DNA of 64,000 bases from the NCBI RefSeq assembly GCF_013315695.1, contig NZ_CP054355.1; one strand, 5' to 3'. The stretch is from Escherichia coli. GTDB lineage: Bacteria > Pseudomonadota > Gammaproteobacteria > Enterobacterales > Enterobacteriaceae. The notes below the pieces were generated by a model. That model was not told the origin of the DNA. It did no database searches and saw only the letters and a list, made by a program, of their open reading frames with translations. Position 1 is the stretch's first letter. Every line of letters starts with the position of its first letter. The position numbers were made by a program, and so were the translations under genes. Shown here piece after piece: positions 9,920 to 61,360 of this stretch.

Positions 9920-10246
9920 ATGACTAAAAATACTCGTTTTTCCCCCGAAGTCCGTCAACGGGCAGTCCGTATGGTTCTGGAAAGTCAGGGCGAATATGAC
10001 TCACAATGGGCGACAATTTGTTCCATTGCCCCAAAGATTGGCTGTACACCGGAGACTCTGCGTGTCTGGGTACGCCAGCATGAGCGGAATACCGGAGGCG
10101 GTGATGGCGGGCTCACCACCGCTGAACGTCAGCGTCTGAAAGAGCTGGAACGTGAAAATCGTGAACTGCGCCGCAGTAACGATATCCTTCGCCAGGCTTC
10201 CGCTTATTTTGCGAAGGCGGAGTTCGACCGCCTCTGGAAAAAGTGA
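9920..10246 (+). CDS. IS629 transposase OrfA
   Basis: [19 protein letters not shown]... HTH/leucine-zipper OrfA of the IS3 family. Confidence 0.8.
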
Positions 10247-11133
10247 TGCCACTGCTGGATAAGCTGCGTAAGCTGTACGGGGTCGGACCGGTATGCAGTG
10301 AACTACATATTGCCCCGTCAACGTATTACCACTGTCAGCAACAGCGACATCATCCTGATAAACGCAGTGCCCGTGCGCAGCGCGATGACTGGCTGAAGAA
10401 AGAGATACTGCGCGTATACGATGGGAATCATCAGGTATACGGTGTGCGTAAAGTCTGGCGTCAGTTGTTACGGGAAGGAATCAGGGTAGCCAGATGTACA
10501 GTGGCGCGCCTCATGGCGGTTATGGGACTTGCCGGTGTTCTCCGGGGTAAAAAGGTCCGCACTACCGTCAGCCGGAAAGCCGTTGCCGCAGGCGACCGCG
10601 TAAACCGTCAGTTTGTGGCAGAACGTCCTGACCAGTTGTGGGTGGCTGATTTTACTTACGTCAGCACATGGCAGGGGGTCGTCTATGTGGCGTTCATCAT
10701 TGATGTGTTTGCCGGATACATCGTGGGGTGGCGGGTCTCATCGTCTATGGAAACGACATTCGTGTTGGATGCTCTGGAGCAGGCGTTATGGGCCCGTCGA
10801 CCGTCCGGCACGGTCCATCACAGTGATAAAGGTTCTCAGTATGTATCGCTGGCCTACACACAGCGGCTTAAGGAAGCCGGATTACTGGCATCAACAGGAA
10901 GTACAGGCGACTCGTATGACAACGCGATGGCGGAGAACATCAATGGTCTTTACAAAGCGGAGGTAATACACCGTAAGAGCTGGAAAAACCGTGCAGAAGT
11001 GGAACTGGCCACACTCACGTGGGTGGACTGGTATAACAATCGACGATTGCTGGAAAGGCTGGGCCATACTCCTCCGGCAGAAGCAGAAAAAGCTTATTAT
11101 GCTTCCATCGGAAACGATGATCTGGCAGCCTGA
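10243..11133 (+). CDS. IS629 transposase OrfB (DDE catalytic domain)
   Basis: IS3-family OrfB overlapping orfA in the -1 frame. Confidence 0.8.
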
Positions 11134-31208: not shown

Positions 31209-31295
31209 ACCATCCTGCACTTATGTTGCACAGAAGGAGTGAGCACAGAAAGAAGTCTTGAACTTTTCCGGGCATATAACTATACTCCCCGCATA

Positions 31296-31386
31296 GAGCA
31301 ACAGCTTCTATGCAGTTTCTTGTTAGCCCCGGTAATCTTTCCTACTCGCCAAAGTTGAAGAAGATTATCGGGGTTTTCGCTTTTCT
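31296..31386 (+). ncRNA. copA: CopA-like antisense RNA of the IncFII replicon (approximate)
   Basis: Plus-strand stem-loop ccccggtaatctt...aagattatcgggg followed by ttttcgctttt, between repA2 and repA1. Confidence 0.45.
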
Positions 31387-32635: not shown

Positions 32636-32845
32636 TTACCTTACATATTTCCATATCTCTTTTGGTATCCTGTCATATAACTTTCCGGTGATTAATTCCG
32701 CTAACCGGTGGTCTGCTGCTGAATTAAATGATTCACGTTCACTGGTTGATAAACTGTCTCTGTTTTTATGAATAATTTTTTCCAGCGTATTGACTGATGA
32801 ACATCGCCGTAACTGATACAGCCATTCCTGTTTTGTTTTTGCCAT
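32636..32845 (-). CDS. hha: Hha/YmoA-family modulator
   Basis: ..YQLRRCSSVNTLEKIIHKNRDSLS...FNSAADHRLAELITGKLYDRIPKEIWKYVR aligns with Hha. Confidence 0.7.
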   Translation of the reverse strand: MAKTKQEWLYQLRRCSSVNTLEKIIHKNRDSLSTSERESFNSAADHRLAELITGKLYDRIPKEIWKYVR

Positions 32846-33352: not shown

Positions 33353-33596
33353 GTTATTCTCCATATCAGATAAATGGCACCTGTATTTCAGGCATCCTGA
33401 ACATTGCAGCACACAATGAATAACACCTTGTTTTGTGAAATAAATCACAAAATATAAAATCTCGACTTAATACGGAAAAAACTCTGTGCTACTCAGAACT
33501 GTACGGTCATACTGCCCGACCGGATATTAAAAAAAGCAAATCTCATGCATTATTCAGCCTTCTGAATCCCTGGAGTAATGAAGGCTGCTTTTTTCG

Positions 33597-33818
33597 TTAC
33601 ACCCTTCCCCGGCTGCGCCGGTGGCAGTGTTCAGCCCTTTTTCGGGCAAACTGCTGCCAGTCTGTCCGGGGCGCAACACCGGCAGCCCGTCGCCATGCTT
33701 CTGCCGCTTCCATCCAGCGTCCACTGACCTCCAGAATAACGGCCCGGCTTCCGGCACGCTGCCAGCGCCAGACCTGACCGTTCCGTGAACTGTTTCTGAA
33801 TCCATTCATCTTTATCAC
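33597..33818 (-). CDS. small Arg/Trp-rich hypothetical protein
   Basis: 73-aa ORF; weak support. Confidence 0.2.
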   Translation of the reverse strand: MIKMNGFRNSSRNGQVWRWQRAGSRAVILEVSGRWMEAAEAWRRAAGVAPRTDWQQFARKRAEHCHRRSRGRV

Positions 33819-33911
33819 TCCTCTTTAACCCGTCAGTATTATGGTGTTAAATAATCTACTGAATTGGCTTCCTTTCGGGTACGGAAGTTATTTCCTTTTA
33901 AGCCTTATTTC

Positions 33912-33942
33912 CCTGCCTCCTCTCTGATGGAGGCTTTTTTTT
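33912..33942 (+). terminator. Rho-independent terminator (plus strand) abutting the finO 3' end
   Basis: gcctcctctctgatggaggc hairpin followed by T8. Confidence 0.55.
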
Positions 33943-34501
33943 ATTTCTCATCAAGCACGGCCTGAAGTTCTGCCTTTATCCGGTTCTGGCGGCGGATTTT
34001 ATCCAGACGCGCTGCCGCATACGCTTCCTCCTCCTGAGAAATATGCTCCGTCACATACCCTTCCGTGTCATACCGGCAGGCACCGGCTTTCATGGCACAC
34101 AGATAGCTTTCTGAACGGGTGATGGCCTTCAGCGCCCTGCGCAGTTTTTTATGCGAGAGCGGGATATTCCGCTGCGCCACGTCTTCCAGTAACACGTCCC
34201 GGATACCGCAGGCCAGAAGTCGGGGTGTGTCACCGTCAAATAATCCCGGCCACCAGGGTTTCAGGGTGTTCACGGCCTCATCCAGCGAGGGCAGGTTCAG
34301 ATAAATGGACAGCGCCTGTCTGGCCTGCGCTTTTTTTGCTGTCAGCTCTGCTTCCCGGGCAGCCTTCTCCGCCAGTTTCTGCTTTTTCACCTTCCATTTT
34401 GGTGGCGTGGTGACATTGATGATGGTTTTCCGGCTCCGGGTCGGTGTTTCCCCTTCCGTTTTCCGTTTCAGTGTCAGTACCGGTCGTTTCTGCTCTGTCA
34501 T
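33941..34501 (-). CDS. finO: fertility inhibition protein FinO (intact)
   Basis: 186 aa, [25 protein letters not shown]... Confidence 0.85.
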
Positions 34502-34603: not shown

Positions 34604-35464
34604 TTAAAGATGTTTTTTAAACCATTGCGTCTGTACTGCCGCCACACGTTCAAAAAACGCGCCTTCATAAATATCATAATGGCATGCGTCAGCTTCCTCG
34701 TATAATTCCTTAGTACCAGAAGCAACAGCATCATATAAGGCTTTTCCCTGTTCTGGTGGATTAACACTATCCTGGCCGGCAATAACAATCAAAACTGGGC
34801 ACTGTACTTTGGCTGCGCTCTCTGCCGGTTTATATTGCAACGTCTCCATAACCGTAAGGAAAGGTATTTTTATATCCATTTCAGGATACTGACCTTTTAC
34901 CTTCTCGAAGAATACCTTTGATTCATTATCACTCAGTACCCGGGTAACCCCCACAAACATCTCTTTCCCGGTGTTTTTCTTCTTCTCTGCCATTTTATTC
35001 AGCGTGGACAGAAAAGACGCTCTCTCCGATTCATTCATCTCTCCGGTAACCAGAACATCACCGTCAGCAAAAGCCAGCTGGCTGACAATACATTTTACGC
35101 GTTGGTCCTGCGCAGCTGCACTGAAGACATGCCCCCCTCCCAGCGATGTTCCCCATAACCCAATACGCTGATTATCAATACATTCCTGCTTTTCTGCCCA
35201 ATTGATAACTGAAATAATATCTTCGGTCTGCATTGCAGGAACCAGACGCCCTCGTTCTCCATCACTCTCACCGAATCCTCGATAATCAAAAGTAATCGTT
35301 GCGAATCCTGCTTCTGTAAAGGCATTCGCAAAGCAAGGGAGCAGAACATTCCTGATACCGCAAAACCCATGGCATAAGATAATCAAAGGATGTTTTATAT
35401 TTCCTTCAGGAACACGAAATGTCAGGGCAATACCTTCAGAGAGTTTGTGATCCGTAATTTTCAT
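34604..35464 (-). CDS. alpha/beta-hydrolase fold protein
   Basis: GxSxG nucleophile elbow (GTSLGG), HG oxyanion motif; between traX and finO. Confidence 0.6.
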   Translation of the reverse strand: MKITDHKLSEGIALTFRVPEGNIKHPLIILCHGFCGIRNVLLPCFANAFTEAGFATITFDYRGFGESDGERGRLVPAMQTEDIISVINWAEKQECIDNQRIGLWGTSLGGGHVFSAAAQDQRVKCIVSQLAFADGDVLVTGEMNESERASFLSTLNKMAEKKKNTGKEMFVGVTRVLSDNESKVFFEKVKGQYPEMDIKIPFLTVMETLQYKPAESAAKVQCPVLIVIAGQDSVNPPEQGKALYDAVASGTKELYEEADACHYDIYEGAFFERVAAVQTQWFKKHL

Positions 35465-36288: not shown

Positions 36289-39200
36289 TCAGTCTCCGCC
36301 CAGGGTTTTCTCTTTCTGCAGGTCACGAACCATATCCCGCTCCATCTGCTGCAGACGCTCCTGCAGCAGATTTTCCCGGGCAACCTCCCGGACCGCTTCC
36401 CGCTCCCGTTGTGATTCACGCAGCACACTCTCCGGCAGTGCGGTTTCCCGTTCAGATATGGCAGACCGGTCACGCTCCTGTCCGGCAATATCCCTGACAG
36501 CCAGCTCTGTTTTGCCATCCGGCAGGTCAGGTTTGTTCTCTGCCATTTTCCTGACAATTTCATCTGCGCGGCGTTCCGTTTCACGGCGGATGGCCTCTTC
36601 AGCCTGCCGCTGTGCCAGTACCTCTGCCGTGACCGGTTCGCCATTTCCGGCCCCCGGCTGGACGCTGTTATCCGGGATATCCCCCCACACGCGGCCACCG
36701 GTGATGGCACCGGGATTCCACGGACGACCTTCACCGGCAATTCTCACCACCACACCGCTGTCAGGATTATCACGGGCAATCCGGACGCCATCCTGCATAT
36801 TATCAGCCAGCAGGCTCTCTCCGTTACGGCTGCCCTGCAGGGCCACGAACTGCGCATCCCCGCTGCCTTTCACCCGTCCTTCACCACTGAATCCCCGCAG
36901 CCCGTTTCCGTCATCCGTGGTCAGTGGGTTCAGCCAGATACCAGCTGACTTGCCGTTACGGTCAAACGCCGGCAGTGCCACATACGGCTGCGGATATTTA
37001 CGTCCCGGTGCAATAAACCGTGCAGGGCTGTCTCCCCCGGCCAGCCCTGCCTGACGGAGAACGGCACGGCCTGCCGCCACGTCCCGCAGTTCCCGTGCCG
37101 TACTGAACAGCCGCTGCGCATTCATGACCTCCCGGTCCGGTTTCGGCTCCAGCACATCGTGGGCAGTTCCTTTCTGTACGGCATTGTTAATGGCATCCGT
37201 CCAGCCCTGACGGTTATCGGTGTACACCTGCACATGCTGCTTCATACGCGACAGGGCCACGTAGGCTGACTCAAAGCCGGCCATCAGTTTCCGGTTACCT
37301 TCCGTGCCTTCAAGCGCGATGGCAAAGGTTTCACTCGCCCCCTGCGCACCGTGGGCGGTGATGGCATAAGCCAGGTCAATATGTTGCTCTGCCCGCTCCT
37401 GGCCGGGGCGAATCACCCGGGTCTGCTGTCCGTCTGACAGCGTGACACTGTCACCGGAAACCGCTGTCACCGTCCAGACGCTGTTGGCCACATAACCGCG
37501 CTCCCGGTCACTCTTCGTGAAGCGCATCCGGTCGCCGGTCCCCACCCGGATTTTGTCCGGGGTGTACAGTGTGACACCTTCAGCCACCGCCTCCCGGGGC
37601 GAAATCAGCCGCGTGTTACCTTCCGCATCCTCCAGGGTTATCAGCCCGTCATCCTTGCTGATACCGGCAATCCGGTGATACACACTATCCACCAGGGCAA
37701 GGGCATCCGGGTTATTCTCCCAGGTGGAGAGACGACGCAGCTCCCCGTCACGTATATTCGCTGTGTTCAGGACAGGCACCATGACCTGCTCTTTCCCCAG
37801 CTCACCGGCCTTTTCCCGTGCATCATGAATCATGCTGTTCAGTACGCGCCGGTCCTCATTCAGGTGCGTGACAATCAGCGTCTGCTCCCGTGCTTCCGGT
37901 GTCCTGCCGGTATAGTCGCGGACAATGGCTTCATACAGTGTCATGGGGACATCCGGAAAAGTCTCACCTTTCAGCATCGCCTTCTGCTGCGCTTCTGCCA
38001 GTTTCGCTTCCTGGCTGTGACTGAACTCCGTCACGGAGTGCTCCGGTGCCCATGCGCCCTCCTGACGGGGAACCTGAGACGGTTTCACACTCTCAAGCCC
38101 GGACAGTGCCCTTTCCACATCCCGGTTAATCAGGCTGTATACCGCCTCCCGCAGTTCCGGCGTCTGACGCACAATCTCCTTCATGATGACCACATCGGCA
38201 GCACTGCGCGTCTGCTGGAGACGGAAAGGCTGACCGGGCGCGATGGCCTGCAGCTGGTCCGTGTCACCACTGGCCACGGCACGACCGCCACCGGCCGCAA
38301 TCAGGGCGTATGCCCGTGCCATGTCGGTATTGCCCACCATTGAGCTCTCATCGAGCAGGAACAGCGTGTTGCTGAAATCCGGCGTTTCTCCGCTGCGCTG
38401 CTGCAGCTGCGTGTCATGCAGAAAGGACGCCAGCGTCTGTGCATCCACGCCGGCGCTGCGCATCTCACCGACCGCACGGTGCGTGGGCCCCAGCCCCACA
38501 ACTCGGGGACGCTCACTCGCCGGCAGCATGTTCACGGCTGACATCACCGCCCGGAACTGTGTGGTCTTACCCACACCGGCATAACCCTGTACCACCGTGA
38601 AACGGTCGGACGTTTCCAGTATCATACGGGTGGCGGCACGCTGTCCCGACGTTAACGTCTCCATGAGTTCGCCGGGTACTCTCTCCATCAGCGGCGTGAC
38701 CGCCTCCTTACCTTCGAGAATATGGCGAAGAATACTTTTTTCTGCCTCATACGACGCACGGGAAACCAGCAGGCCTGTGCCATAGCCTTTTGCCACATCC
38801 ACATACAGTAAGTCACCGCGTTTTATCTGCGCATTGATTTCCCCTCCCAGTTCAGTAAAACCGGTTCCTTCTGCAGCAAACGACTTCGCCTCTGTCAGCA
38901 GGTCCACCATGCTGAAGGCCAGGTTTTTACTTTCCAGCACAGGAAGGGCCAGATGAATGGCCTGCTGTGCCGGCGTGTGCAGCCCGGTTTTCTGCAGACT
39001 GATAGCGGTTTCCAGCGATGTCTCACCGGCCCGCGCCTTTATCTGCTCAGAAACCACCGTAAAGGAGGGATGGCGGGCAAGTTTTTCCGCAGTACGGGTT
39101 TCATCCAGTGAGGAATACAGCCGGACATCACGACCGCTGCGGGCCAGACCGTTCAGGGTGGCGTTGTCCATTGCCATCTGTGTGACGGAGGCAAACACCG

Positions 39201-46029: not shown

Positions 46030-48851
46030 AATGGCCCCTTCAATCGTTCTTTCTTATCATCCACCATCTGTTTTAACGCATCTTCAGACGGTGTTGGCAT
46101 TAATTTCTGTCGTTTATTTTCTTCATTATATCTGTTGTTTTGCTGAATTTCTTCCTGTTTGTGATTATTTTTTAACTCTGAATATTGTCTGTCTACAATA
46201 TTTTCTTCGCCATGAATACTATTCTGAGTATCTCCGATATTCCCTTTATATTCTGTGACCATATTATCAACCTGATGTTTTACATCATTACGGATATTAC
46301 TGTCCTGCGTTCTTTGATCAATAATGACCTGATGCCCCTGATGGTCAGCAATAATATCCTGGCTGCCACCACCCGAAGGTACGCTCTCCATTCCTTTACC
46401 AATATCCCCACGGGATTCACGCCAGGCATTATCAACACCAGGCTGTACCTGTTCCTGCACAAAAGACCACGCCATAGCCCGACGGCGTTCTGCAATCTCC
46501 GGCGAACTGGTATTTGTCAGAATAGCTTCTGCATCCTGCGGTGCGCGTTTCATCACATACTGTGCAAACTGTTGCGACAAGTCTTCACTCATCTGCCCGC
46601 TCATGCTTTCAGTACGGGAGGCCATTTCCGCATATTCATGGCTGCGGGTCATATTCGTCGTGTACTGGTCGTAACTCTGTTTTGCTGAGTTCAGGGCTGC
46701 AGACAACTGGTCCACGCGGGAATCGGCATTATTGTCAGTATGGCTGCCGGATTCACTGACTTTGCGACTGGTAAAGTAATCGCTGGCCTCTTTAAAGTCC
46801 TTACTGGCTTTAGCATCGATATCATGGCGAGCATCATGGGTAGCCCTGCTGCCACTACTTGCTGAATGTGAGTCATCATCCGTTGCATCCAGGCTCCCCT
46901 TAAATCCACCTCTGATGCCTACCCCACCACCAACACCAAGAATTTTAGGTTTAACCCCCCATTCAGCATGAGCATCAGCATACATTCCACCAGATAGCCT
47001 GGTACTTGTTGATGCCAGTTCCTGAGTCGCCTGCTCATTACTGATATTATGCGCCTTCGCATAGCTTTCCACTGCACTGCGCATACGGCTGGCCATCATG
47101 GAGTCCTGTGCGCTCATCGTGCTGTCAGCACCACCTGTGACAGAATCACTGCTCCCCCGGTTAGAACCAAACTGGCTGAGCGAGTTCCAGGCACTGGCAA
47201 TACTGCTGCTGAACCCATGCAGGGCGCTTTCTGCTCTGTTCGACGCCTCCCGGGCCATTTCCTGTTGTGCCGCTGCAATCTGACGCGTTGCATTGATACC
47301 AACCGGTAACCGGGACATCGCCCCGCTCGCATCCATCACCATATTACCGTCACGGGTCTGTGTGGCAGTTGCGCCACTGCCGGTCTGGTACATCATCTGA
47401 CCAAACGACGTGGTGCTGTTGGTGCTCCAGCTGAAGCCGTTCACGTTTTCCGTCTGCATGTTGCCGTAGGAGTAATTACCGTCAACCACACTACCTGCCG
47501 CACTGGCAGTCGGGCTGATAGCAGAGGAAGCGAAATGGCTGTACACGCTGGAAAAACCTGCGCCAAGGCCTTTTACCATCATCCATGACAACGGGGGTAT
47601 CATGACAGATATATATCCGGCAGTGGACGCCAGGTCGGAGTATTTCAGCTGTATCTGAGAGAGTTCAGAGAGCACGACCGGTGCACCATTCTGCTTTGCA
47701 TAGAATGTCATGGCACTGTTCAGAATGGCATACAGCAACGGCCAGGTCTGGAACCACATCAGAGCAAACACATAGCCTCTCAGAACAGACAGCGTCAGTC
47801 TGTTGAAGACAGCCGCCAGTACCAGGAGCGGGAAGATACCAATGGTAATGCCCACCAGAATGGTCTGCACCATCGGCAGGTTTCGCATCAGCACATGACC
47901 AATGGAGACATGTGCCAGACGCTGTTTCTCCATTGACGAAGTCGTGGCCAGACTGACCAGGCTGGCGGTATCACCGTTACGGGCTGCATTACTGGTGATA
48001 CCCTCTTTCAGGGCATTCATGGTGACGTTCTGGCGCATAATATGACTGGCAGACTGGCTGGAGCCGTAGAAATAACTGTAACTGTCACTCACCAGTTGCC
48101 TGAATAACAGGTCCGGGTCCGGTCTGCCGCCAAATATCTGCTGCACATAATAATGCCAGGTCTTGCCTCCCGTCTTTGTATCGAGATTCAGCCTGTCTTT
48201 CAGCGTGACCGACGCATCTTTACAGGTTATGAAATTATTATTGCTGTCATAAACGCCCCGTAGCGGGCTGGGCCGGGAAAAAATCAGCGTGTAGGGGTCA
48301 CCGGAGGCCATCAGGTCTTCCAGCGTGTATTTGTGGTTCAGGTAAATATCCCCCAGCACGCAGTTCTGGACGTAGTCCTGAAACAGATTGATGATTTCCG
48401 GATTCCGGGACAGAAAATCGGTGCTTTTCACAATCAGGTTCGCCCCGAACAGCATGCCTGTCTTGCTGTAGGTGGCGCTGTCAGGCTGGGTGAATATCAT
48501 CTCGTAACTGGCCACCATTGCATGCCCGATACGGGTCGTCAGTGAAAGTGGCATCGCCAGTCCGACCGGCACATTATCCACCCGGTGAACTTTGACCAGG
48601 TCACTGTTATCAATAATCTGCACCGATGTACGGACATTAACCAGCAGGCTGATAAGCACAAACACGGCCACCCAGCCCAGCAAATCCATCACGTTGTGCC
48701 GCTGTACCCACATCACGGCCACCGCGAGAACAGACAATGTGAGCGCAATTTTTTCGATGGAATCCCACGTCCGGGTCCCCATAAAGGCGGCAATGGCGTT
48801 CAGGTTATTGCTTAACCACTCACCACCGGCAATCACATAGACTTCATTCAC
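46026..48851 (-). CDS. traG: mating-pair stabilisation protein TraG
   Basis: 941 aa, polytopic N-terminus, position. Confidence 0.85.
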   Translation of the reverse strand: MNEVYVIAGGEWLSNNLNAIAAFMGTRTWDSIEKIALTLSVLAVAVMWVQRHNVMDLLGWVAVFVLISLLVNVRTSVQIIDNSDLVKVHRVDNVPVGLAMPLSLTTRIGHAMVASYEMIFTQPDSATYSKTGMLFGANLIVKSTDFLSRNPEIINLFQDYVQNCVLGDIYLNHKYTLEDLMASGDPYTLIFSRPSPLRGVYDSNNNFITCKDASVTLKDRLNLDTKTGGKTWHYYVQQIFGGRPDPDLLFRQLVSDSYSYFYGSSQSASHIMRQNVTMNALKEGITSNAARNGDTASLVSLATTSSMEKQRLAHVSIGHVLMRNLPMVQTILVGITIGIFPLLVLAAVFNRLTLSVLRGYVFALMWFQTWPLLYAILNSAMTFYAKQNGAPVVLSELSQIQLKYSDLASTAGYISVMIPPLSWMMVKGLGAGFSSVYSHFASSAISPTASAAGSVVDGNYSYGNMQTENVNGFSWSTNSTTSFGQMMYQTGSGATATQTRDGNMVMDASGAMSRLPVGINATRQIAAAQQEMAREASNRAESALHGFSSSIASAWNSLSQFGSNRGSSDSVTGGADSTMSAQDSMMASRMRSAVESYAKAHNISNEQATQELASTSTRLSGGMYADAHAEWGVKPKILGVGGGVGIRGGFKGSLDATDDDSHSASSGSRATHDARHDIDAKASKDFKEASDYFTSRKVSESGSHTDNNADSRVDQLSAALNSAKQSYDQYTTNMTRSHEYAEMASRTESMSGQMSEDLSQQFAQYVMKRAPQDAEAILTNTSSPEIAERRRAMAWSFVQEQVQPGVDNAWRESRGDIGKGMESVPSGGGSQDIIADHQGHQVIIDQRTQDSNIRNDVKHQVDNMVTEYKGNIGDTQNSIHGEENIVDRQYSELKNNHKQEEIQQNNRYNEENKRQKLMPTPSEDALKQMVDDKKERLKGPL

Positions 48852-61222: not shown

Positions 61223-61332
61223 AAAATTTCCTTGCACATCCATTTTTTTGCGAATATTATTATTCCTGCTGAATATGATTCAATATCGCACGCTACTCAT
61301 CCATCCCAGGATAATGAGTTCATAGGTTGAAG

Positions 61333-61360
61333 TCTCAACACCCCCACTACGGGGGTGTTT
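61333..61360 (+). terminator. Rho-independent terminator
   Basis: acacccccactacgggggtg hairpin followed by T8. Confidence 0.6.

Follow-up and report, generated by a model that had tools for sequence, protein, structure and literature searches.

Beside the end of finO, on the plus strand, we identified a conserved module made of a stem-loop (stem-loop 1), a linker and an intrinsic terminator, which probably forms the 3' end of cis-antisense transcription running across the finO-yigA junction, so that the two strands would make up a sense/antisense locus. The ANR-family gene of the region (yigA in older annotations) is annotated and the antisense RNA AS-pc02 is in Rfam; what is new is the conserved, unannotated stem-loop and terminator module. 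The window, that is, the whole stretch of 64,000 nucleotides that was analysed, is the backbone of an IncF plasmid, and in E. coli resistance and virulence genes are carried mainly by plasmids of this group.

Read leftwards on the minus strand, the genes follow in the order traX, a 286-aa alpha/beta hydrolase gene, finO, the 70-aa ANR gene, a thermonuclease gene, hha, a DUF2726 gene and the RepFIIA control region with CopA (Table 1). The original prediction had placed all annotated neighbours on the minus strand, and this was borne out for the thermonuclease, hha, finO, hydrolase and traX genes. It had also described the DNA between the nuclease gene and finO as a spacer, and this description fell, the region holding a RefSeq-annotated ANR gene on the same strand as its neighbours. 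The ANR gene is the annotated gene of the region, and the plus-strand RNAs discussed below are antisense to it. The region between finO and the nuclease gene is no spacer but, on our reading, a pair of sense and antisense genes, which corrects the earlier picture. The hydrolase gene is variable: some alleles carry it, and in others traX directly adjoins finO. In R6-5, 'orf286' stabilises the finO mRNA. Two genes away from the ANR gene lies hha; the Hha and ANR families consist of small modulators with ties to H-NS or AraC-type regulation, and the two genes may together act as a single regulatory cassette where the tra region ends.

Table 1. Features of the finO-yigA region and other Rfam matches in the window (positions are those of the window).
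Feature	Position	Strand	Details
CopA	31293-31382	+	Rfam match above gathering score
hha	32636-32845	-	
Promoter-like site TTGTGA-16-TAAAAT	33433-33460	+	Start near 33467; in 14 alleles, maximum PWM score 11.2; in the built-in scan
Perfect CRP-type palindrome TGTGA-N6-TCACA	33434-33449		Nuclease/ANR intergenic region; conserved in most alleles
AS-pc02 antisense RNA	33516-33700	+	Rfam RF02876, 'Antisense to pHK01_099'; cmscan 214.4 bits (gathering score 40), full-length model
Weaker terminator-like hairpin	33555-33587, T6 33589-33594	+	CAGCCTTC...GAAGGCTG; fold -12.5 kcal/mol, z -1.3
ANR-family regulator gene (yigA)	33597-33809	-	70 aa; RefSeq WP_001301409.1, 'ANR family transcriptional regulator'
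Promoter-like sites upstream of stem-loop 1	33815-33853	+	Predicted; -10 TATTAT 33837-33842; TGnTAAATA 33845-33853; implied start 33849-33860
Shine-Dalgarno of the ANR gene	33817-33822	-	GAGGAG
Hydrophobic ORF	33841-33927	+	28 aa; from the ORF list; stop codon inside the terminator loop
Stem-loop 1	33861-33894	+	Core stem TGGCTTCC/GGAAGTTA (33865-33872 with 33883-33890), extended by GAA/UUC; loop UUUCGGGUAC
U/C-rich linker	33895-33914	+	From the alignments; predicted single-stranded, unpaired by prediction in all alleles
Intrinsic (Rho-independent) terminator	33915-33942	+	GCCTCC-N8-GGAGGC hairpin 33915-33934, then T8 33935-33942
finO	33941-34501	-	186 aa; Pfam FinO_N 6.6e-38, ProQ/FinO 4.6e-27; RefSeq annotation
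Alpha/beta hydrolase gene	34604-35464	-	286 aa; between finO and traX
AS-traI	38634-38710	+	Rfam match above gathering score
AS-traG	48047-48132	+	Rfam match above gathering score
UptR	61268-61359	+	Rfam match above gathering score
ALIL frameshift pseudoknot	10201-10317	+	Rfam match above gathering score

A strong plus-strand terminator abutting the 3' end of finO had been predicted, and the terminator scan returned the same site, with a 6-bp stem (5 G-C) and an 8-nt loop at 33915-33934 followed by TTTTTTTT; the last two T's of the run fall within the finO stop codon, whose TAA is the complement of 33941-33943. Conservation across IncF plasmids, which the original prediction had named as a check, came out in its favour: the terminator is kept in 21/21 related F-type finO loci that cover that finO end (19 distinct sequences). 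Among the 19 distinct alleles there are 13 different hairpin sequences, all of which fold (-10 to -21 kcal/mol), and every allele carries five to eight T's, on the plus side only. The base of the stem (GCCTCC/GGAGGC) is fixed and five of the seven pairs never vary, while the upper stem and the loop vary and the stem, which reaches up to 11 bp in other alleles, remains paired. Judged on this comparison, the conservation of the predicted terminator is more than chance.

The terminator still lies beside finO where other DNA has taken the place of the upstream sequence, an IS element in allele L019 and a different gene module in L029, and it still adjoins finO in all three alleles that have lost the upstream module (L019, L029 and L018). 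Given this persistence, it could act simply as an insulator of the finO end. Like convergent insulating terminators, it is one-directional, faces the end of the tra-finO operon and would block antisense read-in; unlike them, the module adds a covarying stem-loop and a linker, which a bare insulator would not need. In the diverged FinO loci of pSLT (L033/L034) and Citrobacter braakii (L027, ~72% identity) we found no convergent terminator, and the stop codon of finO lies within the start of the following gene; we conclude that only finO of the F/R100-type lineage is accompanied by the module.

The hairpin might instead serve finO on the minus strand, either by terminating its transcription or, as a stem-loop, by stabilising the 3' end of the finO mRNA, and we consider this very unlikely. 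The hairpin does abut the finO stop and stay with finO where the adjoining DNA has been exchanged (L019, L029), its lower stem is invariant, and in some alleles the minus-strand fold is nearly as good. On the finO-sense side, however, no U-tract follows the hairpin, the sequence there being AGGGAAAUAAGG in the window allele and other non-U sequence in all other alleles, and the five to eight T's are always on the opposite side; a finO-sense terminator was rejected for this lack of a U-tract. Furthermore, the hairpin is more stable on the plus strand in 11 of the 19 alleles, equally stable in four and less stable in four, the U.G pairs of the stem turn into A.C mismatches on the minus strand, and a role for finO would leave stem-loop 1 unexplained.

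Stem-loop 1 has a conserved GGGU in its loop and carries compensatory changes in its stem, to CTTCTTC/GAAGAAG in the L012/pEG356 type and to ACTTTCAT/ATGAAAGT in L014, together with a G.U to A-U change in L011 and L020; its G.U pairs are valid on the plus strand only. A U/C-rich linker with a conserved AAGCCUUAUU joins it to the terminator; within the linker, AAGCCTTATT (33900-33909) is near-invariant, being found in 12 of the 14 aligned alleles and replaced by GGCCTTAT in L014 and L025. The comparison loci were drawn from PLSDB, species genomes and the F plasmid, with identities from 100% down to ~76%, and the structural alignment, based on a covariance model, comprised 27 loci including the window itself (19 distinct rows). 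Plain MAFFT gave errors of stem register, and the loci were realigned with the covariance model, which biases the counts towards the structure. In this alignment 95.5% of the cells are paired, compared with 87.8% in shuffles and 49-69% when partners are slid. The covariation score is 0.272 (0.149 in shuffles, and reached by 0/500 of them) and six pairs have both sides changed (2.9 in shuffles; six reached by 3/500), figures whose significance the shuffle control overstates, because the sequences share ancestry and the alignment was itself made to fit the model. Both the slid-partner control and the stems checked by hand agree with the covariation figures.

The strand of the structure was read from its wobble pairs: the alignment contains 57 G.U and 4 A.C cells, and 95.5% of the pairs are canonical when read as plus-strand RNA, as against 78.3% when read as minus-strand RNA. 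RNAalifold gave -15.7 kcal/mol for the plus and -10.3 kcal/mol for the minus strand. For the first domain it preferred another pairing, GGGU with GCCU and GGAA with UUCC, whose bases are all invariant; we retained stem-loop 1 because of its compensatory changes. A two-hairpin fold was predicted in three diverged alleles, with z-scores of -2.2 to -3.8. Inverted repeats can persist for protein binding or recombination and the compared sequences are closely related, so that a palindrome acting at the DNA level, or a chance feature with no RNA function, was weighed as well. This is scarcely credible in view of the wobble asymmetry, of the T-run that is one-sided in every allele, of a fold kept by 13 different hairpin sequences and of the drop to 49-69% paired in the slid-partner controls. 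The excess of G.U over A.C together with the one-sided T-run argues for a plus-strand RNA, against both a DNA palindrome and an element of the finO mRNA. The aligned alleles show stem-loop 1, linker and terminator as one conserved, RNA-structured module that reads in the plus direction.

The module is carried by 3818 PLSDB plasmids, almost always in single copy and beside finO. The classical F plasmid (L032, NC_002483) has it in full at 1426-1526 (119.8 bits), just after its IS3-disrupted finO. The RefSeq annotation has no RNA at the module, and a search of 33843-33942 against Rfam returned no family at gathering score, the best match, suhB/mmgR, being at chance level (18.9 bits, E = 0.88). 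When the linker was searched for trans targets within the 64-kb window, the best duplex outside the cis site (-27.2 kcal/mol) fell inside the range of the shuffled seeds (-23 to -33).

The 28-aa hydrophobic ORF overlaps the module. It had been predicted as a 27-aa frame ending just before the terminator; the frame exists, but it has 28 codons and its stop lies inside the terminator loop. That it encodes a small membrane protein or a type I toxin, with the terminator ending its mRNA, is extremely improbable. In favour of such a gene, the peptide is hydrophobic, the frame ends inside the terminator, and Hok-family toxins occur nearby in some IncF alleles. The frame is, however, intact in only two of 17 alleles, the ATG being replaced by ATT or AAT in 11 of the 17, with premature stops in L011-L014 and frameshifts and a varying stop position elsewhere; the peptide has no family match in Pfam or NCBIfam, and its ATG lies upstream of the predicted RNA start. 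The reading of the original prediction as an unannotated small gene was rejected on the 17-allele comparison and the family searches. Going by the sequence comparison, the hydrophobic ORF is no gene and no more than a chance feature, a by-product of the RNA module whose conserved nucleotides happen to translate into such a peptide, and it should stay unannotated. Other short frames, namely plus-strand ORFs of 49 aa (33578-33727) and 55 aa (33621-33788) and an 83-aa alternative frame on the minus strand, were also rejected, none being conserved.

On the minus strand, the 73-aa Arg/Trp-rich ORF that had been noted as lying antisense does exist (33597-33818, GTG start), but it is no antisense curiosity: it is the RefSeq ANR gene, which is annotated from the ATG at 33809. 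The protein matches NCBIfam NF033650 over residues 20-68 with 32.9 bits (E = 4.3e-08), a narrow margin over the cut-off of 32; Pfam gave nothing informative, and a PDB sequence search returned designed helical proteins only. The name yigA is used in pCP301 and pS88, and RefSeq names several diverged alleles 'hypothetical protein'. Codon-position analysis does not separate the ANR frame from its mirror frame, and ORF integrity was used instead: of the ORFs compared, that of ANR alone is kept, 14 of the 17 alleles having it intact, and its pN/pS of 0.36-0.6 indicates weak constraint. In p_STEC1589_1 (L005, ~790-800, corresponding to ~33594-33601 of the window) an 8-bp deletion at the ANR stop lengthens the frame, and PGAP annotates in L005 an 83-aa product in a different frame; in L015 the gene is frameshifted and unannotated. 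We found no minus-strand terminator between finO and yigA, so that the two genes are probably co-transcribed.

A plus-strand antisense RNA of the finO-yigA locus has already been described, from plasmid pHK01. This is AS-pc02, whose source is given in the reference list of PMC11980398 as Jiang et al., 2017 (FEMS Microbiol Ecol 93:fix090). In the window, AS-pc02 overlaps the ANR gene by 104 nt at the gene's 3' end and extends into the DNA downstream; its model stops 215 nt short of the terminator and excludes stem-loop 1, the linker and the terminator. In the F plasmid (NC_002483, 1670-1782) the match is only partial, with 87 bits. The L012 allele is that of pEG356, a plasmid which we take to be pHK01-like. 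The original prediction had offered an antisense RNA as its other reading, and this one gained support, both from the AS-pc02 match and from the covarying plus-strand module that holds the terminator.

Reading of the sequence revealed no U-tract at the 3' end of the AS-pc02 match, so that a transcript through AS-pc02 would run on to the terminator at 33915-33942. In another explanation there is only a single long antisense RNA of ~430-480 nt, starting at ~33467 or 33516 and crossing the ANR gene to 33942, of which AS-pc02 and the module would be parts or processing products. Besides the missing U-tract, it is favoured by the upstream TTGTGA-16-TAAAAT element, the strongest conserved plus-strand promoter-like site (up to 11.2; 14 alleles), and by the terminator at 33915-33942 being the next strong one on that strand. 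The same element is a possible origin of a long (~475-nt) antisense RNA that would include AS-pc02. Against the long RNA as the only product stand alleles L016 and L017, which lack the upstream promoter and the 5' half of AS-pc02 and yet keep the module intact, the promoter-like sites directly upstream of stem-loop 1 in diverged alleles, and the hairpin with T6 at 33555-33594, which could stop part of the transcription. We regard it as rather unlikely that this long RNA is all there is.

The hairpin just mentioned lies inside the AS-pc02 match and abuts the ANR stop codon, and L014 has a compensatory CAGCCTCC/GGAGGCTG variant of it; the Rfam consensus of AS-pc02 pairs the same bases differently. 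Farther upstream, the CRP-type palindrome overlaps promoter-like sites placed back to back, the plus-strand one at 33433-33460 and a minus-strand TATATT ending at 33451, which suggests that the nuclease gene, the antisense transcript or both are controlled by cAMP-CRP.

In our preferred reading, with the module as the 3' end of plus-strand antisense transcription, the module could be either an sRNA of its own, with two hairpins and ~85-95 nt, or the end of a longer AS-pc02 transcript. We favour a separate sRNA of ~85-95 nt that would start from the promoter-like sites at 33815-33853. In a scan of 19 alleles, the PWM scores of these sites were 8.8 in the window, 9.4 in L012, 9.7 in L014 and 9.1 in L011, on a chance background of 1.3 sites per kb per strand at a score of at least 8.8. 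Sites of this kind turn up in diverged alleles too, where the alignment places them at the matching position in front of stem-loop 1. Their -35 matches are poor, their -10 variants often lack the final T, and the built-in promoter scan does not list those at 33815-33853. The evidence that these predicted promoters are real is suggestive. A start at 33849-33860 would yield an RNA of 85-95 nt with two hairpins and a U tail, a length that hangs on the weak promoter prediction. Such an RNA would miss the Shine-Dalgarno sequence of yigA, and direct translational control by cis pairing is thus not obvious.

The mechanism that we propose is as follows. On the minus strand, finO and yigA would be co-transcribed, and the plus strand would be transcribed antisense to yigA, AS-pc02 being one such RNA. 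RNA polymerase moving along the plus strand would be halted by the terminator exactly at the finO stop codon, and the same terminator would catch the read-through of a longer AS-pc02 transcript. One effect would be to protect finO and the tra operon from antisense transcription. The antisense RNA would moreover be fully complementary to the 3' end of finO and to the finO-yigA intercistronic RNA, and by pairing with the finO-yigA mRNA it may adjust the expression of yigA, or the processing or fate of the 3' end of the finO mRNA. In its most far-reaching form the proposal is an unannotated, independently transcribed gene, convergent with finO, for a two-hairpin sRNA of ~85-95 nt that would base-pair at the finO-yigA junction, or act on other targets through its invariant AAGCCUUAUU linker, and so set the level of the ANR regulator or the stability of the finO mRNA, probably with ProQ or Hfq and not with FinO; this we put forward tentatively, the odds being somewhat against it. 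If true, the transfer region would have a second RNA switch, located at its distal end, in the F plasmid and in ~60% of complete E. coli genomes. A conserved antisense RNA that ends at the finO stop, opposite an ANR-type regulator gene beside hha, would give the end of the transfer region a cheap control point that is open to testing. According to work attributed to van Biesen and Frost, the level of finO mRNA reportedly decides how strongly IncF transfer is repressed.

Among known systems, AS-pc02 (RF02876) is the closest to the module in place, sharing its locus and strand and likewise lying antisense to the small ANR gene, but its Rfam model lacks stem-loop 1, the linker and the terminator. 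FinP and RepX are FinO-dependent cis-antisense sRNAs; they are ~75 nt long and consist of two stem-loops followed by a U tail (PMC8136791). The module resembles them in its predicted size of 85-95 nt, its two stem-loops and 3' U tail, its plasmid origin and its cis-antisense position; it differs in the much longer linker between the hairpins (20 nt) and in that it need not cover a ribosome-binding site. Ligands of FinO are reported to have a purine-purine mismatch directly below the terminator stem, whereas ligands of ProQ have pyrimidine mismatches or A-U pairs, a rule proposed in PMC12001967. In the module, the bases flanking the closing G-C pair depart from the FinO-ligand rule, being U/U in the window, while other alleles have C/U or A-U. 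As this pattern fits the ProQ type better, we did not file the module as a FinO ligand, and if its RNA is chaperoned, ProQ or Hfq would be a better guess than FinO. FinO ligands were mapped by RIP-seq in Salmonella pSLT, for which TSS data are also available, but the finO of pSLT is diverged and lacks the module. CopA, AS-traI and AS-traG are likewise short structured antisense RNAs that lie opposite backbone genes and end in intrinsic terminators, but the module has no sequence or model similarity to them. Together with AS-pc02, these three make four catalogued antisense RNAs facing minus-strand backbone genes in the window. A search of the literature on antisense or convergent sRNAs at the distal region of finO gave nothing usable.

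Near-identical copies of the 494 bases at 33449-33942 are present in 4773 PLSDB plasmids; of the 5426 complete E. coli genomes, 3265 have them. A scan of the GTDB species genomes returned 11 loci, mostly near-identical plasmid contigs. Eight comparison loci (L020, L021, L023-L026, L029 and L030) are near-identical E. coli IncF contigs filed under Lachnospiraceae, Clostridiales, Bacillota and Collinsella MAGs and under Streptomyces morookaense, which is most likely due to mis-binning or contamination.
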